DNA of 11,855 nucleotides from the IMG/VR virus record IMGVR_UViG_2541047119_000012, positions 1-11,855 of that record; one strand, written 5' to 3'. Under the pieces are notes generated by a model. That model was not told the DNA's origin. It did not search any database and saw only the letters and a list, made by a program, of their open reading frames with translations. Positions 1 through 11,855 of this stretch are shown here, piece after piece. This stretch comes from a virus. Lineage: Duplodnaviria > Heunggongvirae > Uroviricota > Caudoviricetes. The position numbers and the translations under genes are program-made. Position 1 is the stretch's first letter; each line of letters opens with the position of its first letter.

Positions 1-1
1 C

Positions 2-319
2 CATCACAGTGATAAAGGTTCTCAGTATGTATCACTGGCCTATACGGAGCGACTAAAAGAAGCCGGATTACTGGCATCAACAGGGAGTACAGGCGACTCG
101 TATGACAACGCGATGGCTGAGAGCATCAATGGTCTTTACAAAGCGGAGGTAATACACCGTAAGAGCTGGAAAAACCGTGCAGAAGTGGAACTGGCCACAC
201 TAACGTGGGTGGACTGGTATAACAATCGACGATTGCTGGGAAGGCTGGGCCATACTCCTCCGGCAGAAGCAGAAAAAGCTTATTATGCTTCCATCGGAAA
301 CGATGATCTGGCAGCCTGA
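2..319 (+). mobile_element. IS3-family-like transposase (rve/DDE integrase fold), C-terminal part; 5' end lies outside the window
   Basis: Frame open from position 2 to the stop at 317-319. Translation ...HSDKGSQYVSLAYTERLKEAGLLASTGSTGDSYDNAMAESINGLYKAEVIH...LTWVDWYNNRRLLGRLGHTPPAEAEKAYY shows the DDE-transposase C-terminal signature. The right end of the IS is not resolvable by eye; a GC hairpin at about 349-371 may lie in the terminal region. Confidence 0.75.
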
Positions 320-720
320 GTTCACAGATAAAACACTCTCCAGGAAACCCGGGGCGGTTCAGCCGCCCGGATGGATTGGGTTATGAGCCCGTCGTCCGGT
401 GATGCTCTTCTCTGTTTTGTAAAAAGGACGGTACCAGCCGGAAGCAAGGGTACAAGCTGGTACCGCTAAGACTACACACAGCATAAAGTTGTGGTGCCGG
501 GTGCCTCCCGGTGCCTGGCGAAGGTTGCACACCAGGCGGGTGGGTATCCACAGAAGGTCGACTGTCAGCCTCAACCTTAACCCGCGTGCGCTGAGCCGCA
601 TTCACCACAACGCTAAGGATTCTCTCTGGTTGAAAATACTTAGCTGTTATGTGCCTGTCTTTTCACCACTTCAGGCTCGGTGGTATCCTTTTAAGCCCGT
701 ATACATAAAAGGAAAATCAA

Positions 721-966
721 ATGACTTTTGATGAAAAAGAACTTGATAATGCAATTAATAAAATCATCGTAACGTCGCTCTTTTCCTGTCTCAGCGACAC
801 TCAGCAAAAACAGTTCTACGAATCGGCTTTCAACATGATCGAGCGTTGTTGTTTCTGCGATGCCGACGAGTTACCTGAAAAAATCAGGAAACAGTTGGCT
901 GATGCTCTTCGAGTGCGACTTTCTGACCAATTTTCTGAAATGTACTCTCCGAATTTGGACAAATAG
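721..966 (+). CDS. hypothetical small protein (81 aa)
   Basis: ATG preceded by AAAAGGAAAA Shine-Dalgarno-like sequence at about 8 nt. No recognisable motif. Overlaps the 3' end of the convergent ORF 884..1180. Confidence 0.35.
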   Translation: MTFDEKELDNAINKIIVTSLFSCLSDTQQKQFYESAFNMIERCCFCDADELPEKIRKQLADALRVRLSDQFSEMYSPNLDK

Positions 967-1180
967 AAAAAGGCCATTTCCATTCAGGGTCTGATGGAAA
1001 GACTTCAGCCTGTTCTAAAGCACGGCGTAAAGAGAACACAACTCCAGCCATAATCTGATGTTTCCCATTGGTCCAGCTATCGCCGCTCTGATCTACAGGG
1101 GCGGCTATGTCGTATGACCAAACGACTTCACAGTTATTGTTTAAAATCTGGACTTTCATTTCATACACCTGCTTTAACAT
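884..1180 (-). CDS. hypothetical small protein (98 aa, or 91 aa from the second Met)
   Basis: Leftward ORF downstream of the OL-like operators, the position of the first leftward gene (N) in lambda. An AGGTG sits about 7 nt before the second in-frame ATG. Not arginine-rich and no motif recognised. Confidence 0.3.
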   Translation of the reverse strand: MLKQVYEMKVQILNNNCEVVWSYDIAAPVDQSGDSWTNGKHQIMAGVVFSLRRALEQAEVFPSDPEWKWPFSICPNSESTFQKIGQKVALEEHQPTVS

Positions 1181-1366
1181 GAGTGCCTAGTGGCACAACA
1201 TGACTCAACGAATCATCCTGGACTTCATATGCCCCAGGCGGCTACTTCGTGGGCGTCCTGCCTGTTCGTTTTTGACATTTACTGACTGCTTACGACACAT
1301 GCACCGTGTTGCAACCAGATTTTGTTGTAATCCTGTAGTTGGTCTGGAATAAAAGATAAAATTAAA

Positions 1367-1403
1367 TTGCGAGATATGCAAGTGGTATTTGCGAGATATG
1401 CAA
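1367..1403. promoter_or_regulatory. OL-like operator pair: two identical 15-bp sites TTGCGAGATATGCAA (1367-1381, 1389-1403)
   Basis: Exact direct repeat with TTGC-N7-GCAA symmetry, the same pattern as the site TTGCGTGATAAGCAA in the cI-cro intergenic region. On the minus strand a TTGCAT -35-like hexamer overlaps the sites. Confidence 0.45.
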
Positions 1404-1415
1404 ATTTATAGGTAA

Positions 1416-1437
1416 TAAAAAGCCACCTTTCGGTGGC
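1416..1437 (-). terminator. intrinsic terminator downstream of the repressor gene (minus strand)
   Basis: GCCACC-TTTC-GGTGGC hairpin (1422-1437). On the minus strand it is followed by a T-run (plus-strand AAAAA at 1417-1421), about 20 nt past the cI stop. Confidence 0.6.
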
Positions 1438-1457
1438 CGATGGATGGGATATTGAGG

Positions 1458-2150
1458 TTAATTATGTCTCTTAAGGGTTTGCGACTGACTGATTAAGACC
1501 TTTCCAAAGACCATGAATCGGTGTTCGTTTTCGCTAGTAATTCCCCATTCACGGTAAATCTGGTTATCAGAAATCACCAGCAGTTTGTCAGGAATCATTT
1601 GAAGTCTTTTAACGTATATTTTGTCATCAAAACCAAAGACATATATACCATCACCATCAAACTGATTGATGCTGACATCAACGAAGATGAGATCTCCTGG
1701 CTCAATGGTTGGACACATACTGTCCCCACGAACGTTGATAACTTTGATGTGATTGGCTGGTCGTCCGCCGAACATTGATACAGCATTATCAGTTCTGTAT
1801 TCGATGGCATGAATCACATCAATGACATCACCGCCCTGGATAAGGCCATTTCCCGCACTGGCACTGATATCCAGCATTTCAATACGGAACACATCCTTCA
1901 CCTGCGCAACATCCTCATTATTACTGTTTTTATATACAGTATTACTTTTGTGGGCAGAGGTAAAGAGATCAGCAATATCAACACCTAAGCTCTTGGCAAT
2001 ATTACTCAGTGTTTGTTCGGTAAATTGTTTTTGCTTACCCGTTTCTAAGCGCGAGATGTTCGCCGCATCTACTCCTATCGCTTCAGCGAGATCGGCGATT
2101 TTCATGTTCTTCGCTTGGCGAAGTTGTCTGACTCGGTTTCCTATGTTCAT
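1458..2150 (-). CDS. cI: CI-type prophage repressor: N-terminal XRE-family HTH, C-terminal S24 (LexA-like) self-cleaving peptidase domain
   Basis: N-terminus MNIGNRVRQLRQAKNMKIADLAEAIGVDAANISRLETG is an HTH_XRE. C-terminus has GDSMCPTIEPGDLIFVD (catalytic Ser) and a downstream VKRL Lys, the S24 Ser-Lys dyad; Ala-Gly in ...SASAGNG... is a candidate cleavage site. Divergent from the cro-like gene. No SD before the ATG, so the mRNA is probably leaderless. Confidence 0.9.
   Translation of the reverse strand: MNIGNRVRQLRQAKNMKIADLAEAIGVDAANISRLETGKQKQFTEQTLSNIAKSLGVDIADLFTSAHKSNTVYKNSNNEDVAQVKDVFRIEMLDISASAGNGLIQGGDVIDVIHAIEYRTDNAVSMFGGRPANHIKVINVRGDSMCPTIEPGDLIFVDVSINQFDGDGIYVFGFDDKIYVKRLQMIPDKLLVISDNQIYREWGITSENEHRFMVFGKVLISQSQTLKRHN
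1922..1941. promoter_or_regulatory. LexA (SOS) box-like palindrome TACTGTTTTTATATACAGTA inside the cI coding sequence
   Basis: CTGT-N8-ACAG with an all-A/T spacer and TA flanks, close to the E. coli LexA box consensus TACTGTATATATATACAGTA. My by-eye scan of CTGT occurrences found no other copy in the window. Confidence 0.45.
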
Positions 2151-2247
2151 GCGTTTATTACATTTCTTTATTGCGTGATAAGCAAATCAACTTGCGCAAA
2201 ATAATTGCGTGAAATAACATGCATAACGCGCAATATTTGGAGGGCGT
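2151..2247. promoter_or_regulatory. OR-like divergent promoter/operator region between cI and cro
   Basis: Operator-like sites TTGCGTGATAAGCAA (2171-2185), palindrome TTGCGCAA (2192-2199), TTGCGTGAAATAACA (2206-2220) and inverted ATTGCGCG (2227-2234). Rightward promoter candidate: -35 TTGCGC (2192-2197), 17-bp spacer, -10 TAACAT (2215-2220), then GGAGGG RBS before the cro ATG. Confidence 0.6.
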
Positions 2248-2508
2248 ATGCAATCACCATTACGAAATGTGCGTAAGGCGCATGGTTTCACTTTGCAGCA
2301 TGTTGCTGCGGGTGTTCAAGTCAATCCAGCGACGTTGAGTCGTATTGAGAGGCTGGAGCAGATTCCATCTATCGAGCTTGCAGAACGTTTAGCCAATTTT
2401 TTTAAGGGTGAAGTCAGCGAAATGCAGATTCTTTATCCGGCACGTTTTCAATCTAGCCAAAACCAGAATGGGTTTAAACCACAGGAACAGGAGGTGAACC
2501 GTGGGTAA
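2248..2508 (+). CDS. cro: Cro-like HTH transcriptional regulator (XRE family)
   Basis: Divergent from cI. GFTLQHVAAGVQVNPATLSRIER is an HTH. GGAGGG RBS. Its stop overlaps the GTG start of the next gene. Confidence 0.7.
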   Translation: MQSPLRNVRKAHGFTLQHVAAGVQVNPATLSRIERLEQIPSIELAERLANFFKGEVSEMQILYPARFQSSQNQNGFKPQEQEVNRG

Positions 2509-3052
2509 GCATCACTGGAAAGTAGAAAAACAGCCTGAGTGGTACGTGAAAGCTGTCAGAAAAACTATCGCAGCGTTGCCGGGGGGGTACGCTGAAGCTG
2601 CTGACTGGCTGGATGTAACAGAGAACGCATTATTTAACCGCCTTCGTGCCGATGGCGATCAGATTTTCCCGCTGGGATGGGCAATGATTTTGCAACGTGC
2701 TGGTGGAACTCACTTCATTGCTGACGCTGTGGCGCAGTCTGCAAATGGCGTCTTTGTGTCTCTTCCTGATGTCGAGGATGTGGACAACGCCGATATCAAC
2801 CAACGCCTGCTGGAGGTCATTGAACAGATCGGCAGTTATTCAAAACAGATTCGTTCAGCAATTGAAGACGGTGTAGTGGAACCGCATGAGAAGACAGCAA
2901 TTAACGACGAGCTGTACCTCTCAATTTCGAAGCTGCAGGAGCATGCAGCACTGGTCTACAAAATTTTTTGCATTTCAGAAAGTAATGACGCCCGCGAGTG
3001 TGCAGCTCCGGGCGCCGTGGCGTGTCGTGACTGTGGAGAAACTAACGCATGA
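2501..3052 (+). CDS. YdaT/CII-like prophage regulatory protein (183 aa)
   Basis: GTG start after GGAGG RBS, translationally coupled to cro. Sits in the cII position of the immunity module. Family assignment is from memory of YdaT/CP76-type proteins, not from a search. Confidence 0.5.
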
Positions 3053-3387
3053 ACAGTTTAACAACACACTACCGTCGCTCGCAACTGATTGCACTTCCTG
3101 TACCGGGTGGAAAAGCGAAGGTGGAGTATTGCTATGCAGTGAATGTACCAGGTGACAGGGAAATTGTAACCCACAGCTTTGCAGAGTGGGCTGTGGGTGA
3201 TTTCAACAGGCAAAAGGAGACAGTCCTTTGCGACAAGTTAACCGCTGGTTCAAAGATCACTACGGAGTGCCCGTCAGAGTCATTCGTTGGGAACCGGAAA
3301 CACAACGGGTTATCTACCTCCGCGAAGGCTATGAGCATGAGTGCTTCAGCCCGCTCGAACAGTTTCGTCGTAAATTCAGGGAAATAG
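3049..3387 (+). CDS. hypothetical protein; the ORF as drawn is probably chimeric (5' part plausible, 3' part doubtful)
   Basis: ATG overlaps the upstream stop (ATGA) with GGAG about 7 nt upstream, so the start is credible. The 3' half is Ser-rich and low-complexity with rarer codons, while another frame looks coding (see 3228..3407). Confidence 0.3.
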
Positions 3388-3407
3388 AGGTCGGTCATGA
3401 GCACTAA
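3228..3407 (+). CDS. candidate small protein (59 aa) with TTG start, not in the ORF track
   Basis: AAAGGAGA at 3212-3219, 8 nt before TTG at 3228. Translation [59 protein letters not shown] is protein-like. Stop overlaps the start of the replication gene. May instead be the 3' part of a frameshifted gene begun at 3049. Confidence 0.3.
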
Positions 3408-4338
3408 ATTAACCGGCTATGTATGGGATGGTTGCGCTGCGTCAGGCATGAAGTTATCCAGCGTGGCAATTATGGCCCGCCTGGCTGATTTCAGTAATGA
3501 CGAAGGTGTGTGCTGGCCATCAATTGAAACCATTGCCCGCCAGATTGGCGCGGGGATGAGCACCGTCAGAACGGCTATCGCACGGCTGGAAGCAGAAGGC
3601 TGGTTAACGCGTAAGGCGCGTCGCCAGGGTAACCGCAATGCGTCGAATGTTTATCAGCTTAACGTTGCGAAGCTTCAGGCAGCGGCATTTTCTCAACTGT
3701 CAGATTCTGACCCGTCAAAATCTGACGCATCAAAATCTGACCCGTCAAAATTTGATGCGTCGAAATCTGGCAAAAAAGCGGGTTTTCACCCGTCAGAATC
3801 TGGCGGGGATCCGTCAGTAAAATCAAAACATGATCCGTCAGATAAAAAACCTTCTCGTCCGGACGCTTCGCAACCGGACACGCAGACGGATGAACAGGAT
3901 TTTTTAACTCGCCATCCTGATGCGGTTGTATTCAGCCCTAAAAAGCGCCAGTGGGGGACGCAGGATGATTTGACCTGTGCACAGTGGCTCTGGAAAAAAA
4001 TCATCGCCCTGTACGAGCATGCCGCCGAATGTGACGGCGAGGTGGTTCGTCCCAAAGAACCGAACTGGACAGCCTGGGCAAACGAAATTCGCCTGATGTG
4101 TGTGCAGGATGGTCGTACTCATAAACAAATCTGCGAGATGTACAGCCGCGTCAGTCGCGATCCGTTCTGGTGCCGTAACGTGCTCAGCCCGTCGAAGCTG
4201 CGGGAAAAATGGGATGAGCTTTCCCTGCGCTTATCGCCGTCCGTCAGCACGTACACCGAAAAACGCGAGGACCCGTACTTCAAAGCCAGTTACGACAACG
4301 TGGACTACAGCCAGATCCCGGCAGGATTCAGGGGGTGA
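3397..4338 (+). CDS. lambda O-like replication initiator (N-terminal winged-HTH) with an internal iteron array
   Basis: N-terminus ...VAIMARLADFSNDEGVCWPSIETIARQIGAGMSTVRTAIARLEAEGWL is a wHTH. The repeat region encodes SDPSKSDASKSDPSKFDASKS. Position follows the immunity module as O does in lambda. Confidence 0.55.
   Translation: MSTKLTGYVWDGCAASGMKLSSVAIMARLADFSNDEGVCWPSIETIARQIGAGMSTVRTAIARLEAEGWLTRKARRQGNRNASNVYQLNVAKLQAAAFSQLSDSDPSKSDASKSDPSKFDASKSGKKAGFHPSESGGDPSVKSKHDPSDKKPSRPDASQPDTQTDEQDFLTRHPDAVVFSPKKRQWGTQDDLTCAQWLWKKIIALYEHAAECDGEVVRPKEPNWTAWANEIRLMCVQDGRTHKQICEMYSRVSRDPFWCRNVLSPSKLREKWDELSLRLSPSVSTYTEKREDPYFKASYDNVDYSQIPAGFRG
3706..3845. repeat. iteron array (putative replication origin): four tandem 15-bp units (3706-3765) plus degenerate copies to about 3845, followed by an A-rich stretch
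   Basis: TCTGACCCGTCAAAA / TCTGACGCATCAAAA / TCTGACCCGTCAAAA / TTTGATGCGTCGAAA at exact 15-bp phase; 3724-3734 and 3751-3761 are reverse complements. Further CCGTCAGA-like copies at 3789, 3810, 3834, then AAAATCAAAACA...GATAAAAAACC. Confidence 0.6.
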
Positions 4339-4340
4339 GC

Positions 4341-4829
4341 ATGAGTCTTTTGAATGACGTTCAGAAATTCATTGAAGCCCATCCGGGCTGTACTTCCGGA
4401 GACATTGCGGATGCTTTTGCAGGTTACTCACGGCAGCGCGTTCTGCAGTCTGCAAGCAAGTTACGTCAGAGTGGGCGTGTGGCTCACCGTTGTGAAGGGG
4501 ATACACGCAGACATTTCCCGCGCCTGACTGAGAGAGCGCAGGAGCCGGAACCACAACCAGTTCGTGAAACCAGACCTGTGCGCAATTTCTATGTCGGCAC
4601 TAACGATCCCCGGGTGATTTTGTGCCTGACCCGCCAGGCTGAAGAACTGGAGTCCAGGGGCTTATACCGTCGTGCTGCAACGGTGTGGATGGCGGCATTC
4701 CGTGAAAGCCACTCCCAGCCAGAACGAAACAATTTTCTGGCGCGTCGTGAGCGGTGCTTACGGAAAAGCAGCAAGCGCGCTGTATCGGGTGAAGAGTGGT
4801 ATCTGTCAGGGAATTACGTGGGGGCTTAA
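4341..4829 (+). CDS. PerC-family-like transcriptional regulator (about 162 aa)
   Basis: ATG at 4341 after GGGGG RBS (an in-frame GTG at 4335 is also possible). Motif ...ELESRGLYRRAATVWMAAF... resembles the PerC/Pch signature as I recall it. Stop overlaps the next start (TAATG). Confidence 0.45.
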   Translation: MSLLNDVQKFIEAHPGCTSGDIADAFAGYSRQRVLQSASKLRQSGRVAHRCEGDTRRHFPRLTERAQEPEPQPVRETRPVRNFYVGTNDPRVILCLTRQAEELESRGLYRRAATVWMAAFRESHSQPERNNFLARRERCLRKSSKRAVSGEEWYLSGNYVGA

Positions 4830-5482
4830 TGAGTAATAAATATTGCCAGGCGCTGGTGGAGCTGCGGAACAAACCAGCCCATGAACTGAAGGAAGTGGGC
4901 GATCAGTGGCGCACGCCGGACAACATTTTCTGGGGAATTAACACCCTGTTTGGCCCGTTTGTTCTGGATCTGTTCACTGACGGTGATAACGCCAAATGTG
5001 CCGCTTATTACACTGCGGAAGACAACGCGCTGGCGCATGACTGGTCAGAACGTCTTGCGGAGCTTAAAGGTGCTGCCTTTGGTAATCCCCCATACAGCCG
5101 CGCCAGTCAGCATGAGGGGCAATACATCACCGGCATGCGTTACATCATGAAGCATGCCAGTGCCATGCGTGATAAAGGCGGGCGCTATGTTTTCCTGATC
5201 AAAGCTGCCACCAGCGAAGTGTGGTGGCCGGAAGATGCAGATCATATTGCTTTTATTCGCGGGCGTATTGGTTTTGAACTGCCTGCCTGGTTTATCCCGA
5301 AGGATGAGAAGCAGGTGCCGACAGGCGCTTTCTTCGCTGGTGCTATTGCTGTTTTCGACAAGACCTGGAAGGGACCGGCAATCAGCTACATCGGGCGCTA
5401 TGAACTTGAGGCATGTGGTGAGGCCTTTCTGGCGCAGGTTCGCCAGCAGGCAGAAAAACTGGTCAGGGAGATGGCGGCATGA
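4829..5482 (+). CDS. phage Dam-type DNA N6-adenine methyltransferase
   Basis: N-terminal WRTPDNIF motif and catalytic NPPY (...AAFGNPPYSRA...). ATG overlaps the upstream stop; the GTG at 4796 in the ORF track is less likely. Confidence 0.85.
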   Translation: MSNKYCQALVELRNKPAHELKEVGDQWRTPDNIFWGINTLFGPFVLDLFTDGDNAKCAAYYTAEDNALAHDWSERLAELKGAAFGNPPYSRASQHEGQYITGMRYIMKHASAMRDKGGRYVFLIKAATSEVWWPEDADHIAFIRGRIGFELPAWFIPKDEKQVPTGAFFAGAIAVFDKTWKGPAISYIGRYELEACGEAFLAQVRQQAEKLVREMAA

Positions 5483-5805
5483 CGACGTTAACTCAATGCC
5501 AGCAGCAGGTGCTGGATATGCTGATTTCTTATCAGAAAGAACGTGGCTTCCCGCCAACCAATCAGGAGGTGGCAACCATGCTGGGATACCGTTCAGTGAA
5601 TGCAGCGGTGGAGCATCTTCGCGCACTGGAGAAAAAAGGCGTCATCACGATAAAGCGTGGCGTGGCCCGGGGGATAACGCTTCATATCGCGGTGAAGGAC
5701 GACGACAGCGAGGCGGTCGGGATTATCCGCGCACTGCTTGCCGGTGAGGAAAACGCAAGGCTGCGTGCAACCCACTGGTTACATGAGAGGGACCTGAAAG
5801 TATGA
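5479..5805 (+). CDS. LexA N-terminal DNA-binding-domain protein with no S24 peptidase domain (108 aa)
   Basis: LTQCQQQVLDMLISYQKERGFPPTNQEVATMLGYRSVNAAVEHLRALEKKGVITIKRGVARGITL aligns by eye along its length with the E. coli LexA N-terminus (…LTARQQEVFDLI…[44 protein letters not shown]…). No Ala-Gly cleavage or Ser-Lys peptidase region follows. GGGAG RBS; ATGA overlap with the methyltransferase stop. Confidence 0.8.
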   Translation: MTTLTQCQQQVLDMLISYQKERGFPPTNQEVATMLGYRSVNAAVEHLRALEKKGVITIKRGVARGITLHIAVKDDDSEAVGIIRALLAGEENARLRATHWLHERDLKV

Positions 5806-6191
5806 AGCTGATCCTGCCTTTTCCGCCCAGCGTGAACACGTACTGGCGACACCCCAACAAAGGGGCGTTTGCTGGTAAGAGCCTGATAAGCGCGGCGGGG
5901 CGAAAATTCCAGAGCGCGGCGTGCGCAGCAATAGTTGAGCAGTTACGTCGTCTGCCGAAACCAACGTCGGCACCTGCTTCAGTGGAGATCGTGTTGTTTC
6001 CTCCGGATAACCGGATCCGCGATCTGGACAACTATAACAAGGCGCTGTTTGACGCCCTGACCCACGCGGGTGTGTGGGAAGACGACAGTCAGGTGAAAAG
6101 AATGCTGGTGGAGTGGGGACCGGTTATCCCGGAAGGGAAGGTCGAGATCACTATCAGTAAGTACGAGAAAACGGCGGGTGCAGCCGCCTGA
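5802..6191 (+). CDS. rusA: RusA Holliday-junction resolvase
   Basis: PFPPSVNTYWRH...DLDNYNKALFDALTHAGVWEDDSQV matches the RusA family conserved blocks. Start overlaps the upstream stop. Confidence 0.9.
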   Translation: MKLILPFPPSVNTYWRHPNKGAFAGKSLISAAGRKFQSAACAAIVEQLRRLPKPTSAPASVEIVLFPPDNRIRDLDNYNKALFDALTHAGVWEDDSQVKRMLVEWGPVIPEGKVEITISKYEKTAGAAA

Positions 6192-6210
6192 TTAAGAGGA
6201 GAAACGAAGT

Positions 6211-7020
6211 ATGAATAATCTGATGGTCATTGATGGTATTGAAGTTCGTCGTGATGCTTATGGGCGTTACAGCCTGAACGATCTGCATCGCGCAGCAGTA
6301 GCATCTGGTGCAAATGCCAGAACCAAGGAGCCGGGAAAGTTTCTTTCCAGCCAACAAACTGTTGAGCTTGTTCATGAATTGACCAACACCCAGAATTTGG
6401 GTGTTGACCCGGTGAGTGTGATTCATGGGGGAAATGAACGGGGAACGTATGTCTGCAAGGAACTGGTGTATGCCTATGCAATGTGGATCAGCCCGTCATT
6501 CCATCTGAAGGTGATCCGTACTTTCGATATGGTAACCAGCGCACCGGAAAAATTATCCGGACAGGCTGCTGACAAGATGCAGGCTGGCGTGATCCTGCTG
6601 GACTTTATGCGCCGGGAGTTAAACCTGTCTAACTCTTCAGTGCTTGGTGCCTGTCAGAAACTCCAGGAGGCTGTTGGCTTACCGAATCTGGCACCGCGCT
6701 ATGCCATTGATGCTCCTGCTGACGCGCCTGATGGCTCAAGCCGCCCCACGCTATCATTGAGTGCACTGCTGAAGCAGTATGGTATCCGCCTGACAGCTAA
6801 TCAGGCATATCACCAGATGGCGAAGCTGGGGATCGTTGAACAACGTGAACGATACAGCCGCACTGCGATTAACAACATCAAAAAATTCTGGTCGCTGACA
6901 GCGAAAGGCTGCATGTTCGGCAAGAACATCACCAGTCCCGCAAATCCGCGCGAGACGCAGCCGCATTTCTTCGAATCCCGATTCCCTGAGCTGTTAAAGC
7001 TGCTCGATACCGTTCATTGA
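6211..7020 (+). CDS. KilA-N domain protein with a C-terminal antirepressor-like region
   Basis: N-terminus ...DGIEVRRDAYGRYSLNDLHRAAVASG...GTYVCKELVYAYAMWISPSFHLKVI is a KilA-N domain. Strong RBS AAGAGGAGAAA. Confidence 0.75.
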   Translation: MNNLMVIDGIEVRRDAYGRYSLNDLHRAAVASGANARTKEPGKFLSSQQTVELVHELTNTQNLGVDPVSVIHGGNERGTYVCKELVYAYAMWISPSFHLKVIRTFDMVTSAPEKLSGQAADKMQAGVILLDFMRRELNLSNSSVLGACQKLQEAVGLPNLAPRYAIDAPADAPDGSSRPTLSLSALLKQYGIRLTANQAYHQMAKLGIVEQRERYSRTAINNIKKFWSLTAKGCMFGKNITSPANPRETQPHFFESRFPELLKLLDTVH

Positions 7021-7021
7021 G

Positions 7022-8017
7022 GTGACCGTGAGAGCACTACTGACTCCTGAAATTGCCCCGCGTATGGGGATCGTATTGTTCAGGCCAGGTTCAGAGCTGA
7101 TGCCCCTGTTTATGCAGGGGCGTGTCCTGCTGGAGCCTGAGCCGGAACGTTATTCATCTTTCGCCAGTGGTGCCGTTCCGGCGGCATCACAACCGCTGGC
7201 GGATGATCCTGCCGTTCGGGCCGTGTTCCGCAATGAGGCAGTGATCCGTCGTGCTGGTGGCGTGGAATGTCTTGAAAGCTGGTTACTTCGTGAAAAAGGC
7301 TGCCAGTGGCCTCATTCCGACTGGCACAGCGAGAACATGACCACAATGCGACACGCTCCGGGCGCAATCCGTCTGTGCTGGCACTGCGATAACCAGCTGC
7401 GCGATCAGTTCACGGAACGGCTGGAATCAATGGCAACGGATAACTGTGCCCGCTGGGTGTTGTCTGTTGTGCGTCGGGATCTCGGTTTTGATGACAGTCA
7501 CGTTGTGACAATGCCGGAACTGTGCTGGTGGCTGATTCGTAATGACCTGGCGGATGCCTTACCGGAAAGTGCAGCCCGTAAGGCACTTAGATTACCGAAG
7601 CCTGTTGTGCCGTCTGTTACCCGGGAAAGTGACCTTGTGCCTTCGGTTCCTGCCACCAGCATCATCCAGGATAAAGCGAAAAAGGTGCTGGCGCTGAAAG
7701 TGGATCCTGAGTCGCCGGAGTCTTTTATGTTACGCCCAAAACGTCGCCGCTGGGTTAATGAAAAGTACACGCGCTGGGTTAAGACACAGCCGTGTGCATG
7801 TTGTGGAAAGCCTGCTGATGATCCCCACCACCTGATAGGTCACGGTCAGGGAGGAATGGGTACAAAAGCGCATGACCTCTTTGTGTTGCCTTTGTGCAGA
7901 AAGCATCACGACGAGCTGCATGCGGATACCGTGGCATTTGAAGAGAAGTATGGCTCCCAGCTGGAGCTGATATTTCGTTTTATCGATCGTGCGCTGGCAA
8001 TAGGCGTACTGGCGTAA
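7022..8017 (+). CDS. DUF968-like prophage protein with a C-terminal Cys/His zinc-binding (HNH-like) motif
   Basis: C-terminus ...PCACCGKPADDPHHLIGHGQGGMGTKAHDLFVLPLCRKHHDELH. Nin-region position between rusA and Q. Start is uncertain (GTG 7022 or a downstream start). Confidence 0.5.
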   Translation: MTVRALLTPEIAPRMGIVLFRPGSELMPLFMQGRVLLEPEPERYSSFASGAVPAASQPLADDPAVRAVFRNEAVIRRAGGVECLESWLLREKGCQWPHSDWHSENMTTMRHAPGAIRLCWHCDNQLRDQFTERLESMATDNCARWVLSVVRRDLGFDDSHVVTMPELCWWLIRNDLADALPESAARKALRLPKPVVPSVTRESDLVPSVPATSIIQDKAKKVLALKVDPESPESFMLRPKRRRWVNEKYTRWVKTQPCACCGKPADDPHHLIGHGQGGMGTKAHDLFVLPLCRKHHDELHADTVAFEEKYGSQLELIFRFIDRALAIGVLA

Positions 8018-8030
8018 GTGGAGAACGAGC

Positions 8031-8783
8031 ATGAACTTTGAAGCCTTACCGAAATATTACTCCCCAAAATCTCCAAAATTGAGCGATGACGCACCGGCGA
8101 CAGGCTCTGGTGGTTTAACAATTACGGATGTAATGGCTGCGCAGGGGATGGTGCAGTCGAAAGCACCGCTTGGGTTTGCCTTATTCCTGGCAAAAGTTGG
8201 TGTTCAGGATCCTCAGTTTGCGATTGAAGGTCTGCTCAATTACGCGATGGCACTGGATAACCCGACATTGAACAAATTGAGTGAAGAAACCCGGCTACAG
8301 ATCATTCCTTACCTTGTGAATTTTGCCTTTGCTGATTATTCCAGGTCTGCGGCAAGTAAGGCTCGCTGTGAGCATTGTGCTGGTACTGGATTTCATGATG
8401 TATTGCGCGAGGTGGTGAAACACTCCAGAAGCGGGGAATCTGTTATCAAGGAAGAGTGGGTGAAGGAACTGTGTCAGCATTGTCATGGTAAGGGAGAAGT
8501 CAGCACAGCGTGCAGAGGGTGTAAGGGTAAAGGTATTGTCCTGGATGAAAAAAGAACCAGGCTTCATGGCACGCCTGTTTATAAGGTTTGTGGGCGTTGC
8601 AATGGAAACCGGTTTAGCCGTTTACCAACCACACTGGCGCGGCTTCATGTCCAGAAGCTGGTACCAGACCTGACGGATTATCAGTGGTACAAAGGATATG
8701 CAGATGTCATTGATAAACTGGTTACAAAGTGCTGGCAGGAAGAAGCGTATGCTGAGACACAATTGAGGAAAGTGACGAGATGA
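8031..8783 (+). CDS. Q: late-gene antitermination protein Q (phage 82 / QuuQ type, 250 aa)
   Basis: Four CxxCxGxG-type zinc-finger repeats (CEHCAGTG, CQHCHGKG, CRGCKGKG, CGRCNGN). Sits immediately upstream of a promoter plus short-transcript terminator. GGAG RBS. Confidence 0.8.
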   Translation: MNFEALPKYYSPKSPKLSDDAPATGSGGLTITDVMAAQGMVQSKAPLGFALFLAKVGVQDPQFAIEGLLNYAMALDNPTLNKLSEETRLQIIPYLVNFAFADYSRSAASKARCEHCAGTGFHDVLREVVKHSRSGESVIKEEWVKELCQHCHGKGEVSTACRGCKGKGIVLDEKRTRLHGTPVYKVCGRCNGNRFSRLPTTLARLHVQKLVPDLTDYQWYKGYADVIDKLVTKCWQEEAYAETQLRKVTR

Positions 8784-8814
8784 ATGATTTTCGACGAAAA
8801 TGGCGACATGATGC

Positions 8815-8843
8815 TTGCATTTTTCAAAAAAAATGGATAATAT
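8815..8843 (+). promoter_or_regulatory. PR'-like late promoter (-35 TTGCAT, 17-bp spacer, -10 TAATAT); a qut site is expected to overlap
   Basis: Hexamers at 8815-8820 and 8838-8843, directly downstream of Q and about 50 nt upstream of an intrinsic terminator. Confidence 0.5.
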
Positions 8844-8890
8844 TTTCTCAATGATAGGCATTGTGTGTCCGGCTTTAATAAAAAGTAGAA

Positions 8891-8917
8891 AACCCGCTGA
8901 TGTGCGGGTTTTTTTTC
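8891..8917 (+). terminator. tR'-like intrinsic terminator
   Basis: AACCCGC-TGATGT-GCGGGTT hairpin followed by TTTTTTTT. Confidence 0.7.
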
Positions 8918-8937
8918 GGAATTTTAGATGTGTGGCA

Positions 8938-8967
8938 TTGAAATGGTATTCGGCGAGTAGGTAGAAT
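8938..8967 (+). promoter_or_regulatory. sigma70-like promoter upstream of the cargo genes (-35 TTGAAA, 18-bp spacer, -10 TAGAAT)
   Basis: Hexamers at 8938-8943 and 8962-8967, about 27 nt upstream of the 8995 ATG. Confidence 0.4.
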
Positions 8968-8994
8968 TTAAACTTTCGTCTCGTCTGGATCGAC

Positions 8995-9537
8995 ATGATG
9001 TTTCAAGCCTTCCAAACAGCAGTATTTAAAAATGTTGCAGAGTATTTAAAAGGGCGCTTCCCTCATAAGTCGTTAGGGCTCGTATATGCCGACGAGCTGG
9101 TACTAAAAGATATGGAGTTCCTCAAGGCTAACAATAAACTGCGGTGGGATCCCGGACTAAAGTCGCGAGTGTTTATGGATATGATGGAAGAACACCCGAT
9201 AAAACTAGTTGTTTATTATCGTGGGGAGCCTATTGGATTTGCATTTGGGTGTTACTGTAAGCCGAAAAATGCGGTGCATATTTGCTGGATGGAAAAACGT
9301 AATGATGCACATGAAGACCTAGACCATCAGATGCTTGGTATCGTTTTGGATTGCTTCTCTGCATATGCACGATTTCTGAACCTTCAGGGTGAATCTATTG
9401 ATTCGATAGCTTTAGTTAGTCCAGTTGATGGGGCAATAAGATACTATACTGAAAGTGGTTTTGAGTACATTGCTGATTACGAACGAGGTGGTTGCGCAAT
9501 GGTGCTTAGGAGCGTTTTACCTAACCAATCAGTGTGA
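8995..9537 (+). CDS. uncharacterised cargo protein (180 aa), possibly GNAT-fold acyltransferase-like
   Basis: Lies in the AT-rich segment. C-terminal ...SIALVSPVDGAIRYYTESGFEYIADYERGGCAMVL resembles the GNAT beta5-alpha4-beta6 region, but the canonical Q/RxxGxG/A acetyl-CoA motif is not evident. Weak SD. Confidence 0.55.
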   Translation: MMFQAFQTAVFKNVAEYLKGRFPHKSLGLVYADELVLKDMEFLKANNKLRWDPGLKSRVFMDMMEEHPIKLVVYYRGEPIGFAFGCYCKPKNAVHICWMEKRNDAHEDLDHQMLGIVLDCFSAYARFLNLQGESIDSIALVSPVDGAIRYYTESGFEYIADYERGGCAMVLRSVLPNQSV

Positions 9538-9728
9538 GTTAGATTCTTAATTTCTCCAGAATCATTACAAAAGTATTGAAAACCTCTTTTAGTTGATGCA
9601 ATCTGGATCCACACAAAGCACACACAAAATGTACTACGCTTTACTTTATACATCTTCAGGTAACAAACTTTGTTGCCTTTATGCTTCAAAGAAGCAACTA
9701 CAGCTTAGTGCTGAACAAGGGGATTTTT

Positions 9729-9914
9729 ATGAAACATCATGAGCAGATAGAGATTGAGGCAGCTAAAGTCGTCGCCGAACTCTTTGCTGGCAATGCATCT
9801 CCAATGGAAACCTTTGGTATTACATGGAGTCAAACTCAGATGTTAGAGCGTAAGAATCCTGGTGTAGTGATCAAACTAGTACCGGATGACGGTAAAAAAC
9901 TTGCGTATTGCTGA
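9729..9914 (+). CDS. uncharacterised small cargo protein (61 aa)
   Basis: ATG at 9729 with AAGGGG 6 nt upstream (the track's upstream ATG at 9681 lacks an RBS). Followed by an intrinsic terminator. No motif recognised. Confidence 0.5.
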   Translation: MKHHEQIEIEAAKVVAELFAGNASPMETFGITWSQTQMLERKNPGVVIKLVPDDGKKLAYC

Positions 9915-9973
9915 TAATTTTTAAAGATTTTTTCAGCTAGAGAATCGATTATTTTACTATAAATCGCGAAGGA

Positions 9974-9998
9974 GCCCCACATATTGTGGGGCTTTTTG
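9974..9998 (+). terminator. intrinsic terminator closing the cargo unit
   Basis: GCCCCACA-TAT-TGTGGGGC hairpin (8-bp stem) followed by TTTTTG. Confidence 0.7.
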
Positions 9999-10171
9999 TT
10001 TCATCTTAGTTAGCCGTTATTCACATTCACTACTTTGCTACTTATCCACTGTAAAAATAAATTGTGAATTATTTTGTGGCTTATTGTTAGTGTTCTATCA
10101 ATTTTGTGTGTGATATTCCATTGGCGTGGTTATTATCTGTGCATCGCACTTAAATGTATAAAGCTCACTAG

Positions 10172-10486
10172 TTGAGACAATCCTACCACCAGTTGGTGGT
10201 ATCTCATGATTCACTGAATTGCAAATCTTCTGAATTGCTGGATGAGTTTAAATCTCACCGGCGCTATTTCTCCGTATCAGTCTCCGTGCCTTATACCGAT
10301 GTCAGGACGCATAAGCCCGTTCAGTTCTACCCGGGTAAACATCCGTGCGAGAAACCGGCGGATATGCTCAGGCAAATAATCAATGCCAGTAGTCGACCTG
10401 GTGATCTGGTTGCTGATTTCTTTATGGGATTCGGTTCCACAATAAAAGCAGCAATGGCGCTGGGGCGTCGGGCGTTAGGTGTTTAA
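10172..10486 (+). pseudogene. remnant of a beta-class N6/N4 DNA methyltransferase (C-terminal motif region only)
   Basis: ...HPCEKPADMLRQIINASSRPGDLVADFFMGFGSTIKAAMALGRRALGV corresponds to the conserved ...HPTQKP...GD.VLDPF.GSGTT..AA..LGR..IGIE block with degenerate residues. No DPPY-encoding N-terminal part upstream, which is AT-rich non-coding. TTG start only. Confidence 0.55.
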
Positions 10487-10553
10487 CTTGAGTCAGAGCG
10501 GTTTAATCAGACGGTGAAAGAGGTAAGTGAACTGGTGGGGAAATAATTCTGGT

Positions 10554-10579
10554 GGCCACGTTGCGTGGCCTTTTTATTT
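10554..10579 (+). terminator. intrinsic terminator immediately upstream of the holin gene
   Basis: GGCCACG-TTG-CGTGGCC hairpin (10554-10570) followed by TTTTTATTT. Confidence 0.6.
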
Positions 10580-10622
10580 CCAACACAGCACCCGCAAATA
10601 TCGCGAGGTGAGAGATGACGAA

Positions 10623-10958
10623 ATGCCTCATAACCCAAATACCTGGCCGGACTGGCTGGAGTTGTTTCAGAGCTGGTGGCGTGGAGACACACCGCTGGGT
10701 GCAGTGATTATGTCGATCGTTATGGCTGGTTTGCGCATCGCCTATTTTGGCGGTGGTGGTGGCTGGAAGCGAAAAACGCTCGAGATTTTGCTATGTGGCG
10801 CTCTGACGCTGACCTTTGCATCCGCTCTTGAGTATGTCGGATGGCCTAAATCACTTTCTGTTGCCATTGGTGGTGGGGTGGGGCTGATCGGTGTCGATGC
10901 TATTCGTGGGGCTGCAATGCGAGTAATCGGTAACAAATTTGGTGGCTCTAAGGAGTAA
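10623..10958 (+). CDS. holin (lambda-S-like architecture, about 111 aa)
   Basis: Three hydrophobic segments (AVIMSIVMAGLRIAYFGG; TLEILLCGALTLTFASALEYV; LSVAIGGGVGLIGVDAIRGAAM) and a charged C-terminus, directly upstream of the endolysin. GAGGTGA about 11 nt before ATG 10623. The track's 10527 GTG start would place a terminator hairpin inside the coding sequence. Confidence 0.7.
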   Translation: MPHNPNTWPDWLELFQSWWRGDTPLGAVIMSIVMAGLRIAYFGGGGGWKRKTLEILLCGALTLTFASALEYVGWPKSLSVAIGGGVGLIGVDAIRGAAMRVIGNKFGGSKE

Positions 10959-10961
10959 TTT

Positions 10962-11438
10962 ATGCAGGTACTAAATTCCCAGCGTAAAGCTTTCCTTGAT
11001 ATGGTGGCTTGGTCAGAAGGAACGGATAACGGACGACAACCGACACGTAACCACGGTTATGACGTTATTGTCGGTGGTGAACTCTTCACTGATTACTCCG
11101 ATCACCCTCGCAAACTTGTCACGCTAAACCCCAAACTCAAATCAACAGCCGCCGGACGTTACCAGCTTCTTTCACGTTGGTGGGATGCTTACCGTAAACA
11201 GCTTGGTTTGAAAGACTTCTCCCCCAAAAGCCAGGACGCTGTGGCATTGCAGCAGATTAAAGAACGTGGCGCTTTACCGATGATTGATCGTGGTGATATT
11301 CGTCAGGCTATCGACCGTTGCAGCAATATCTGGGCTTCGTTGCCGGGCGCTGGTTACGGTCAGTTCGAGCATAAGGCTGACAGCCTGATTGCAAAATTCA
11401 AAGAAGCAGGCGGAACGGTCAGAGAGATTGAGGTATGA
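10962..11438 (+). CDS. R: endolysin, lambda R-type lytic transglycosylase
   Basis: ...[57 protein letters not shown]...[91 protein letters not shown]... is almost identical to phage lambda R as I recall it. AAGGAG RBS. Confidence 0.95.
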
Positions 11439-11855
11439 GCAGAGTAACCGCGATTATTTCCGCTCTGGTTATCTGCATCATCGTCTGCCTGTCATGGGCT
11501 GTTAATCATTACCGTGATAACGCCATTACCTACAAAGCCCAGCGCGACAAAAATGCCAGAGAACTGAAGCTGGCGAACTCGACAATTACTGACATGCAGA
11601 TGCGTCAGCGTGATGTTGCTGCGCTCGATGCAAAATACACGAAGGAGTTAGCTGATGCGAAAGCTGAAAATGATGCTCTGCGTGATGATGTTGCCGCTGG
11701 TCGTCGTCGGTTGCACATCAAAGCAGTCTGTCAGTCAGTGCGTGAAGCCACCACCGCCTCCGGCGTGGATAATGCAGCCTCCCCCCGACTGGCAGACACC
11801 GCTGAACGGGATTATTTCACCCTCAGAGAGAGGCTGATCACTATGCAAAAACAAC
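11435..11855 (+). CDS. Rz: Rz i-spanin (inner-membrane spanin); 3' end beyond the window
   Basis: [48 protein letters not shown]... matches lambda Rz. ATG overlaps the R stop. Confidence 0.9.
11655..11837 (+). CDS. Rz1: Rz1 o-spanin lipoprotein, embedded in the +1 frame of Rz
   Basis: [24 protein letters not shown]... has a lipobox (VVGC) and the proline-rich [17 protein letters not shown], lying wholly inside Rz in another frame as in lambda. Confidence 0.9.

Follow-up and report, generated by a model that had tools for sequence, protein, structure and literature searches.

A palindromic repeat array within the initiator gene as the probable replication origin of a lambdoid prophage

The iteron origins of plasmids such as R6K, pSC101, P1, F and RK2 consist of multiple initiator-binding repeats beside an AT-rich unwinding region, and the initiator that reads them is a winged-helix protein. 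Plasmid iterons are direct repeats of 17-22 bp which lie outside the rep gene, are usually bound by monomers and are usually accompanied by DnaA boxes. Lambdoid phages have their origin in the central part of gene O, where 19-bp imperfect inverted-repeat iterons are combined with an AT-rich tract (PMC7466680). There are four iterons in lambda and six in Stx phages, and the minimum is two iterons plus the AT tract (PMC7466680). Here we describe a repeat-rich segment in the replication initiator gene of a virus of the Caudoviricetes (IMG/VR record IMGVR_UViG_2541047119_000012, positions 1 to 11,855). This whole stretch of 11,855 nucleotides is called the window below, and all coordinates refer to it unless a locus is named. 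Its gene order reads as the early region of a lambdoid prophage. Positions 3696-3855, within the linker-coding part of the initiator gene, are probably the replication origin of this prophage, as judged from sequence comparison. The elements of the gene are as follows.

3397..4338, plus strand: replication initiator gene, 942 bp, 313 aa (list of open reading frames, translation, Pfam HTH_36, PHROG 391)
[quoted passage not shown]
3699..3771, no strand assigned: A array, five 13-bp palindromes GTCARAWTCTGAC at an exact spacing of 15 bp (3699, 3714, 3729, 3744, 3759)
3772..3788, no strand assigned: A6/T4 spacer AAAAAAGCGGGTTTTCA, 35% GC, with a nearly invariant TTTT run that belongs to the long form of the B unit (consensus of 79 homologues)
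3789..3807, no strand assigned: B unit, a 19-bp palindrome CCCGTCAGAATCTGGCGGG which holds the sixth copy of the palindrome and is the best-conserved candidate initiator site
3808..3855, no strand assigned: C units, a pair of 24-bp repeats (GATCCGTCAGTAAAATCAAAACAT, GATCCGTCAGATAAAAAACCTTCT) that are both headed by GATC and both carry a CCGTCAG half-site
3856..3891, plus strand: GC-rich joint between the module of N-domain plus array and the C-domain module
3892..4230, plus strand: part encoding the helical domain at the C-terminus (aa 166-278; homologous to lambda O and phi80 gp15 in their C-domains)

The original prediction for this locus had described four 15-bp units in exact phase, and Tandem Repeats Finder indeed reported them at 3706-3769 (period 15, 4.3 copies, 81% matches; also period 30, 2.1 copies, 88%). 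In a second repeat search the 15-bp register spanned 3685-3774 at exact spacing, with a sixth copy at 3778-3807. The repeat unit is best described as a 13-bp palindrome, of which the tandem array at 3699-3771 contains five. The pattern GTCARAWTYTGAC was found at 3699, 3714, 3729, 3744, 3759 and 3792, that is six times against 1.07 expected, and none of 200 shuffled sequences reached six. The inverted symmetry that had been noticed between units is likewise real (the arms 3724-3741 and 3744-3761 are 89% complementary) and arises because every unit is itself palindromic. Of the further CCGTCAGA-type copies that had been claimed, those at 3790 and 3835 are exact and belong to the element, and the variant CCGTCAGT occurs at 3811. 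The window holds four exact copies against 0.24 expected, but the two at 3271 and 3563 lie outside the array, and the codons at 3563 are scrambled in homologues, so neither was retained. Both C units begin with GATCCGTCAG and continue A-rich. The A-rich stretch reported to follow the array is there and is more than a short A run: 3814-3853 is the lowest-GC 40-mer of the gene (30% GC, gene mean 53%) and is a candidate unwinding region. No DnaA box was found in or near the initiator gene, and the total number in the window was not above chance.

The whole array lies within the open reading frame 3397-4338 of a winged-helix replication gene, as had been stated. Pfam HTH_36 matches aa 23-70 (E=4e-11), no Pfam domain covers the repeats, and PHROG 391, 'replication initiation O-like', matches the protein with E=4e-135. 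In the AlphaFold2 model the winged helix comprises aa 1-98, with helices and then a beta-hairpin wing over aa 3-98. Residues 102-163, encoded by nucleotides 3700-3885, are disordered (pLDDT below 50), and a helical C-domain follows at aa 166-278, with its helices over aa 189-278. According to Foldseek the N-domain resembles MarR/ArsR-type winged-helix dimers; a sequence search of the PDB gave weak MarR-type matches only. The N-domain falls outside the lambda O family: Pfam assigns HTH_36, GntR and MarR-type HTH matches to it and no Phage_rep_O, and BLASTP revealed no N-domain similarity. The C-domain, however, is related to that of lambda-type O proteins (39% identity, E=9e-18 in tblastn; E=6e-26 in BLASTP against a lambda O) and to the product of phi80 gene 15 (35% identity in tblastn). 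In the BLASTP alignment to lambda O the array stands opposite the iteron-coding codons of lambda. A lambda relative has four iterons here (ATCCCTCAAAACGAGGGA-type, approximately 19-20 bp long and 20-24 bp apart) and a 20%-GC tract, just upstream of the homologous C-domain. The array DNA translates to SDPSK/SDASK repeats, followed by FHPSESGGDPSVKSKHDPSDKK. A pentapeptide linker is therefore encoded, as the original prediction said, but it is not the beta-helix of Pfam pentapeptide-repeat proteins, since the segment has no Pfam Pentapeptide match and is predicted to be disordered. The five-residue period of the peptide is a mere translation of the 15-bp period of the DNA.

For the study of conservation 80 loci sharing the N-domain were collected from one-genome-per-species contigs and phage records, and 79 homologues, ranging from Escherichia to Proteus, were analysed. 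Codon entropy in the N-domain was 1.51 bits, with the top codon at a frequency of 0.52 (57 conserved-residue columns). The B and C region had 0.34 bits and a top codon frequency of 0.91 (13 columns; Mann-Whitney test against the N-domain, p=6e-7). At consensus-residue positions of this region the codons GAA, TCA (both serines), GTA and GAT (both aspartates) were used in 100% of cases and TCT in 97%. A similar preference was seen in the A units, defined here by the peptide pattern S[DE]xS[KE]: the first serine was encoded by TCT in 82% (background 10%), the fourth residue, again serine, by TCA in 86% (background 17%) and lysine always by AAA (background 64%). The B unit is kept even where it is read in another frame. 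In a Citrobacter locus (L078) TTTTCACCCGTCAGAWTCTGAC occurs twice, 33 bp apart, and is read as FHPSDSD and, one base out of frame, as VFTRQNLT; a 22-bp unit of phiP27 is likewise read in two frames. The 79 linkers contain 334 copies of the core CA[GA]A[AT]T[CT]TG (14.6 per kb), and the other approximately 390 kb contain 16 (0.04 per kb), an enrichment of about 350-fold. The symmetry of the B palindrome was retained in 87.6% of cells, compared with 37-58% in slid controls. Best conserved of all is the core at 3784-3850, which is nearly invariant, synonymous positions included, and B and C were present in every locus that could be anchored. On these alignments the selected object is the nucleotide sequence and not the peptide.

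The tandem array is real, but its units are the most variable part, with a copy number that goes from about 2 to 9 overall, and the invariant core lies beside them. Among E. coli alleles that are 99% identical the A array ranges from none to five units, giving proteins of 282, 287, 303 and 313 aa. About nine A units are present in a Klebsiella relative. Proteus has three copies of the long B-type unit, 27 bp apart, and three of the C unit, 24 bp apart. We conclude from this comparison that B and C would form the obligatory core and that A would be an expandable accessory, like the two extra lambda-type iterons of Stx phages.

This N-domain and its A, B and C units are followed by a lambda-O-like C-domain in this window and in Klebsiella phages and by a DnaD-like C-domain in phiNP, YeP3, LLS and most genome loci. 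In phiP27 they are joined to a third type of C-domain, after which DnaC and DnaB genes follow. The genes upstream and downstream also vary among phiNP, LLS, phiP27 and this window. Mosaic breaks were seen at the joint: phiNP, YeP3, LLS and phiP27 diverge from the window after the array, and mEp460_4F5 is similar only from about 3839 onwards (96% identity). The mEp460_4F5 protein ('primosomal protein I') has the same C-domain and another N-domain, and its gene contains an array of its own, five 23-bp units of the CATCGGGTCAAAATGAC type plus three 12-bp AT-rich units, at the same gene position (L005:2355-2513). The O protein of phi24B has an N-domain 43% identical to the one described here, and its gene carries three units of 21-24 bp, GGGGTGGGGCAGGAGCTGCCC, at the same place. 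The phi24B units (L091:2027-2092) are GC-rich palindromes that encode a Gly/Ala linker. We found no characterisation of the mEp460_4F5 or phi24B arrays in the literature. Across these records the array travels with the N-domain and not with the C-domain or the flanking genes, and other N-domains have other arrays. Such a pattern of one domain and one array is expected where an initiator recognises sites of its own. In the classical view, replicon specificity is set by the origin together with the N-terminal part of O. We infer that N-domain and array make up a single recombination module which sets the specificity of the replicon. The role that the original prediction assigned to the array would predict just such inheritance through C-domain swaps and replacement along with the N-domain.

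Two fossils of this initiator gene are present in E. coli K-12. The copy in CPS-53/KpLE1 (L086:3002-3709) has lost the first 233 nt and kept the whole array; it is a pseudogene located between yfdP and yfdN and known as yfdO. In the e14 copy (L092, the excised circle OR902851.1) the first 80-100 or so codons of the N-domain are fused to a terminase fragment, and no array is present. Among plasmids we found no natural mini-replicon with these elements. The matches were prophages in megaplasmids or misassigned chromosomes, the excised e14 circle and a 16-kb prophage fragment.

The repeats, their selection at the DNA level, their position in the linker, their linkage to the N-domain, the low-GC tract and the homology of the C-domain were observed here and together lead us to regard the segment as an origin; the mechanism is drawn by analogy with lambda. 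Induction would start rightward early transcription through cro, the cII-like gene, the DUF4222 gene and the initiator gene, and the initiator would be made. Dimers of the winged-helix N-domain would bind the B unit (19 bp), the five A units (13 bp each) and the half-sites of C, and the resulting nucleoprotein complex would strain and open the adjacent 30%-GC tract at 3814-3853. The lambda-O-type C-domain would then bring in the DnaB helicase of the host by some route that does without phage-encoded P, DnaC or DnaB. In E. coli the host regulator SrsR also binds the A units, at least in vitro. The original prediction had named absence of the repeats from homologous functional replication genes as evidence against it. 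The repeats are present in the homologous genes of LLS, SfII and SfIV, which are plaque-forming or inducible: LLS forms plaques on K-12, and both SfII and SfIV are working phages.

Several observations weigh against an origin at this place. No gene for a helicase loader or helicase (P, DnaC or DnaB) was detected near the initiator gene, in the replication module at 3397-8017, with Pfam and PHROG. Modules with O only occur in 34 of 314 lambdoid phages, none of which has been studied, and their replication is not understood (PMC12315714). Alleles with only two palindromic units are common; one of these, in a syntenic prophage of Salmonella, was recorded on 128 contigs and also has the C units. 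Since two-unit alleles are common, most of the tandem array must be dispensable or only modulatory. With a spacing of 15 bp, adjacent sites look towards almost opposite sides of the helix, whereas the spacing in lambda is approximately 20-24 bp. The AT-rich tract reaches only 30% GC and is unremarkable within the whole window (nearest-neighbour stability z=+1.1), although a whole-window profile understates it and the comparison within the gene was taken as the relevant one. Because neither the core CAGAATCTG nor the presumed recognition helix (S55-T56-V57) varies appreciably within the family, covariation of protein and DNA is uninformative there. Finally, SrsR is the only protein that has been shown by experiment to bind the A units.

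SrsR (YgfI) is a LysR-type regulator of E. coli. Its strongest genomic SELEX peak in K-12 lies in the 'yfdO/yfdP spacer' of CPS-53, with an intensity of 1206 compared with 150-290 at the other nine sites (PMC9181523). A 66-bp DNase I footprint at this site contains four 11-bp boxes, TCAaATTTTGa, TCAGATTTTGa (twice) and TCAGAgTcTGa (PMC9181523). The mRNA of yfdO was 3.7-9.5-fold lower in an srsR mutant and 10-12-fold higher on overexpression, and SrsR is stated to activate yfdONMLK (PMC9181523). The paper treats the site as an intergenic operator of a host regulon, and the passages searched mention neither the interior of an initiator gene nor a likeness to an origin (PMC9181523). The published boxes correspond to A units in reverse complement and map to 3700, 3715, 3730 and 3745 of the window, that is to the first four of them. 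The box TCAGATTTTGC matches at 15-bp spacing in the K-12 copy (L086 3071-3126, corresponding to 3700-3755 of the window), and the first box differs by one base here. The SrsR site of CPS-53 and the array are therefore the same DNA, in a gene that is truncated at its N-terminal end in K-12 and intact in the window.

This raises the possibility that the array is primarily an operator for SrsR, which would activate the downstream genes (the yfdN-type PerC gene, Dam and others), and that its position in the initiator gene is incidental. The SELEX peak, the footprint, the expression changes of yfdO and the identity of the boxes with A units all speak for it. We nevertheless consider it unlikely, for a number of reasons. 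The most conserved parts of the element, B and C, lie outside the four boxes. The array follows the N-domain of the initiator and not the variable downstream genes, and other N-domains have other arrays at the same place. No sigma-70-like promoter was found in 3000-4900, and SELEX favours sites with multiple copies. Moreover, the array is conserved in genera where no SrsR orthologue was found. Orthologues were found only in Escherichia, Citrobacter, Kosakonia, Yersinia, Hafnia and Sodalis-like bacteria (56 relatives, E<=1e-30). None of the 56 was assigned by name to Salmonella, Klebsiella pneumoniae, Proteus, Providencia, Pantoea or Rahnella, yet the array is present in every one of these; the search was word-seeded and about a quarter of the proteins were named, which makes this result strong and not absolute. 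No sequence similarity was seen between the N-domain of the initiator and SrsR. On this distribution SrsR is unlikely to be the conserved partner of the array, and its binding to the A units may be adventitious or may be a real input from the host. A tentative extension, which we rate as rather improbable though not negligibly so, is that in E. coli and those relatives that have SrsR a tetramer of this stationary-phase regulator on the A units blocks or assists the initiator and switches on the downstream early genes, so that host physiology gates the firing of the origin in a very common family of prophages. If this were true, the SrsR regulon of K-12 would have as its top target a fossil phage origin and not a bacterial promoter.

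The conserved sequence could also act as RNA, namely as a folded part of the early mRNA governing how stable the initiator message is or how well it is translated. The region 3690-3860 folds to -53.2 kcal/mol (z=-6.0 against shuffled sequences), and conservation independent of the reading frame suits RNA as well as DNA. Any array of palindromes folds well, though, and the z-score does not discriminate. It is the sequence itself that is conserved: covariation in B is weak, with three pairs showing double changes, which is not above the shuffled control, and the B pair 13-25 is unpaired in 25 of 53 sequences. Long-range pairs could not survive the observed gain and loss of 15-bp units, no Rfam match was obtained in the whole window, and the N-domain-specific arrays would be left unexplained. 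We regard an RNA element as very improbable. Just as little probability attaches to a recombination joint, an island kept because it mediates or records the exchange of N- and C-modules among lambdoid phages. Mosaic boundaries do lie directly after the array, near 3839-3891, and the sequence on the flanks of the island is diverged. The block, however, is internally repetitive, palindromic and tied to one type of N-domain. Homology that serves exchange should span N-domain types, whereas the arrays of mEp460_4F5 and phi24B are unrelated. Selection for evolvability is also weak in view of near-complete fixation at about 60 positions across genera. Scarcely credible, finally, is a slippage-prone, low-complexity flexible linker (SDxSK) with no function of its DNA: the predicted disorder, the lack of a Pfam domain over the segment and the varying copy number among near-identical alleles, as replication slippage would give, are in line with it, but across genera there is almost no synonymous variation in the linker, in contrast to the scrambled codons of the adjacent N-domain, the same unit is kept in another frame with unrelated peptides and the palindromic symmetry is retained, so that a pure linker is excluded. 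None of these explanations covers both the linkage to the N-domain and the frame-independent conservation.

Two further features were seen within the element. Between the A array and the B unit a terminator-like hairpin is present on the minus strand (3792-3779), consisting of CGGGTGAAAACCCG followed by CTTTTTT. It is probably due to chance, as its stem is not conserved in the homologues. GATC sites are located at 3808-3811 and 3832-3835. At both the aspartate codon is GAT in 79 of 79 homologues, and the base after each codon is C in nearly all of them, which recreates GATC; a few have GAACC at the second site. A Dam methylase gene (4796-5482) is part of the same operon here and in phiNP, YeP3, LLS and mEp460_4F5, and according to the paper on SfIV this phage lacks a Dam gene. 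Control of the candidate origin by methylation or SeqA is conceivable.

The initiator gene belongs to the early rightward operon, where it comes after cro, the cII-like gene and a DUF4222 gene. The main genes on this side are:

1458-2150, minus strand: cI-type repressor gene
2248-2508: cro
2501-3052: cII-like gene

On the 3' side of the initiator gene the order is PerC-like gene, Dam methylase, a gene with a LexA DNA-binding domain, RusA, KilA-N, HNH/DUF968, Q antiterminator and holin. The initiator gene is 100% identical to a copy in E. coli strain 7784 and 98-99% identical to genes annotated as 'O' or 'replication' in the Shigella phages SfII and SfIV and in E. coli phages including PhiR29. 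At least 80% of its length was found in 1576 of 5426 complete E. coli genomes. The PerC-like (yfdN-type) gene at 4335-4829 is translationally coupled to it; the PerC domain occupies only the C-terminal half of the product, and the N-terminal part of about 100 aa is uncharacterised. Directly 5' of the initiator gene two open reading frames overlap in different frames, and both have family support. The SfIV annotation has the one at 3049-3387 (112 aa), which matches PHROG 1170 (E=4e-70). The other, at 3228-3407 (59 aa), matches Pfam DUF4222 (E=9e-19), is annotated in RefSeq and overlaps the start of the initiator gene by 11 bases. Elsewhere in the window two gene fragments were noticed: the C-terminal part (68 aa) of an rve-type transposase/integrase core at 113-319 and the C-terminal part (104 aa) of an N6/N4 DNA methylase at 10172-10486. 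They suggest insertion-sequence and gene decay at the borders of the early and late regions. Short tandem repeats occur at 1804-1830 (three 9-bp units, ATGACATCA), inside the cI gene region, and at 6221-6242 (2.3 units of 10 bp, TGATGGTAT), where the KilA-N gene begins.

The initiator gene is thus very common, being found in E. coli genomes, in the serotype-converting Shigella phages SfII and SfIV and in the CPS-53 remnant of K-12. Narrowing its probable origin to about 160 bp, with an invariant core at 3784-3850 and an expandable accessory array, makes the question of how O-only modules replicate directly testable. The array is a predicted determinant of replicon specificity and incompatibility which might be used in prophage typing and phage engineering. 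The top published site of SrsR can be reinterpreted as the repeat array of a decayed phage origin, with possible control of prophage replication by the host, and this affects the understanding of the regulon. The locus is also a clean natural case in which a DNA signal constrains a coding sequence, and one unit is even read in two frames.

How does this segment compare with the origins described so far? As in the lambda origin, dyad-symmetric repeats lie within the initiator gene, where they occupy the linker that joins a DNA-binding N-domain to a homologous C-domain. The most AT-rich tract of the gene is on the promoter-distal side of the repeats, as it also is in mEp460_4F5. The number of repeats varies between relatives, as in lambda and the Stx versions of its origin, and the encoded peptide is a dispensable-looking linker. 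In contrast to lambda, the N-domain is of the HTH_36 type, the repeat sequence is different and there is no P gene for a helicase loader. There are two classes of repeats here, 13-bp units 15 bp apart and one 19-bp unit, and the AT tract is weaker (30% against 20% GC) and contains two conserved GATC sites. The likeness to the lambda arrangement of an origin within O, as drawn in the original prediction, accordingly holds for position, AT tract and C-domain homology and fails for the N-domain family and the helicase loader. In the lambda relative the sequence CCGAGAATTCTGGCG, to the right of the AT-rich tract (L087:866-890), resembles the core of the B unit, CCGTCAGAATCTGGCG; this may be a coincidence. 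A lambda-like O with six lambda-type iterons has been ascribed to 'phage P27' (PMC7466680). The GenBank entry for phiP27 (AJ298298) has an HTH_36-type initiator (L17) followed by DnaC and helicase genes, and the two may be different phages.

Another counterpart is LLS, an example of an O-only phage. The N-domain encoded by its gene 44 is 87% identical to the one described here, the A, B and C units are all present, and no helicase or loader gene follows. The C-domain is DnaD-like in LLS, whereas it is lambda-O-like here. The LLS paper gives no location of an origin (PMC12315714), and we found no described origin for SfII, SfIV, SfV or LLS in the literature. The gene plan of mEp460_4F5 and phi24B is the same, with a palindromic array directly after the N-domain, and mEp460_4F5 shares the C-domain and the joint; the sequences and periods of their repeats, however, are unrelated to those found here. 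With the plasmid iteron origins the segment has in common the repeats beside an AT-rich region and a winged-helix initiator, but its repeats lie inside the gene and are not accompanied by DnaA boxes. Taken as a whole, the comparison gives good support to an origin within the O-like gene, and we would place it as a new array within the known class of origins that lie in the gene of their own initiator.

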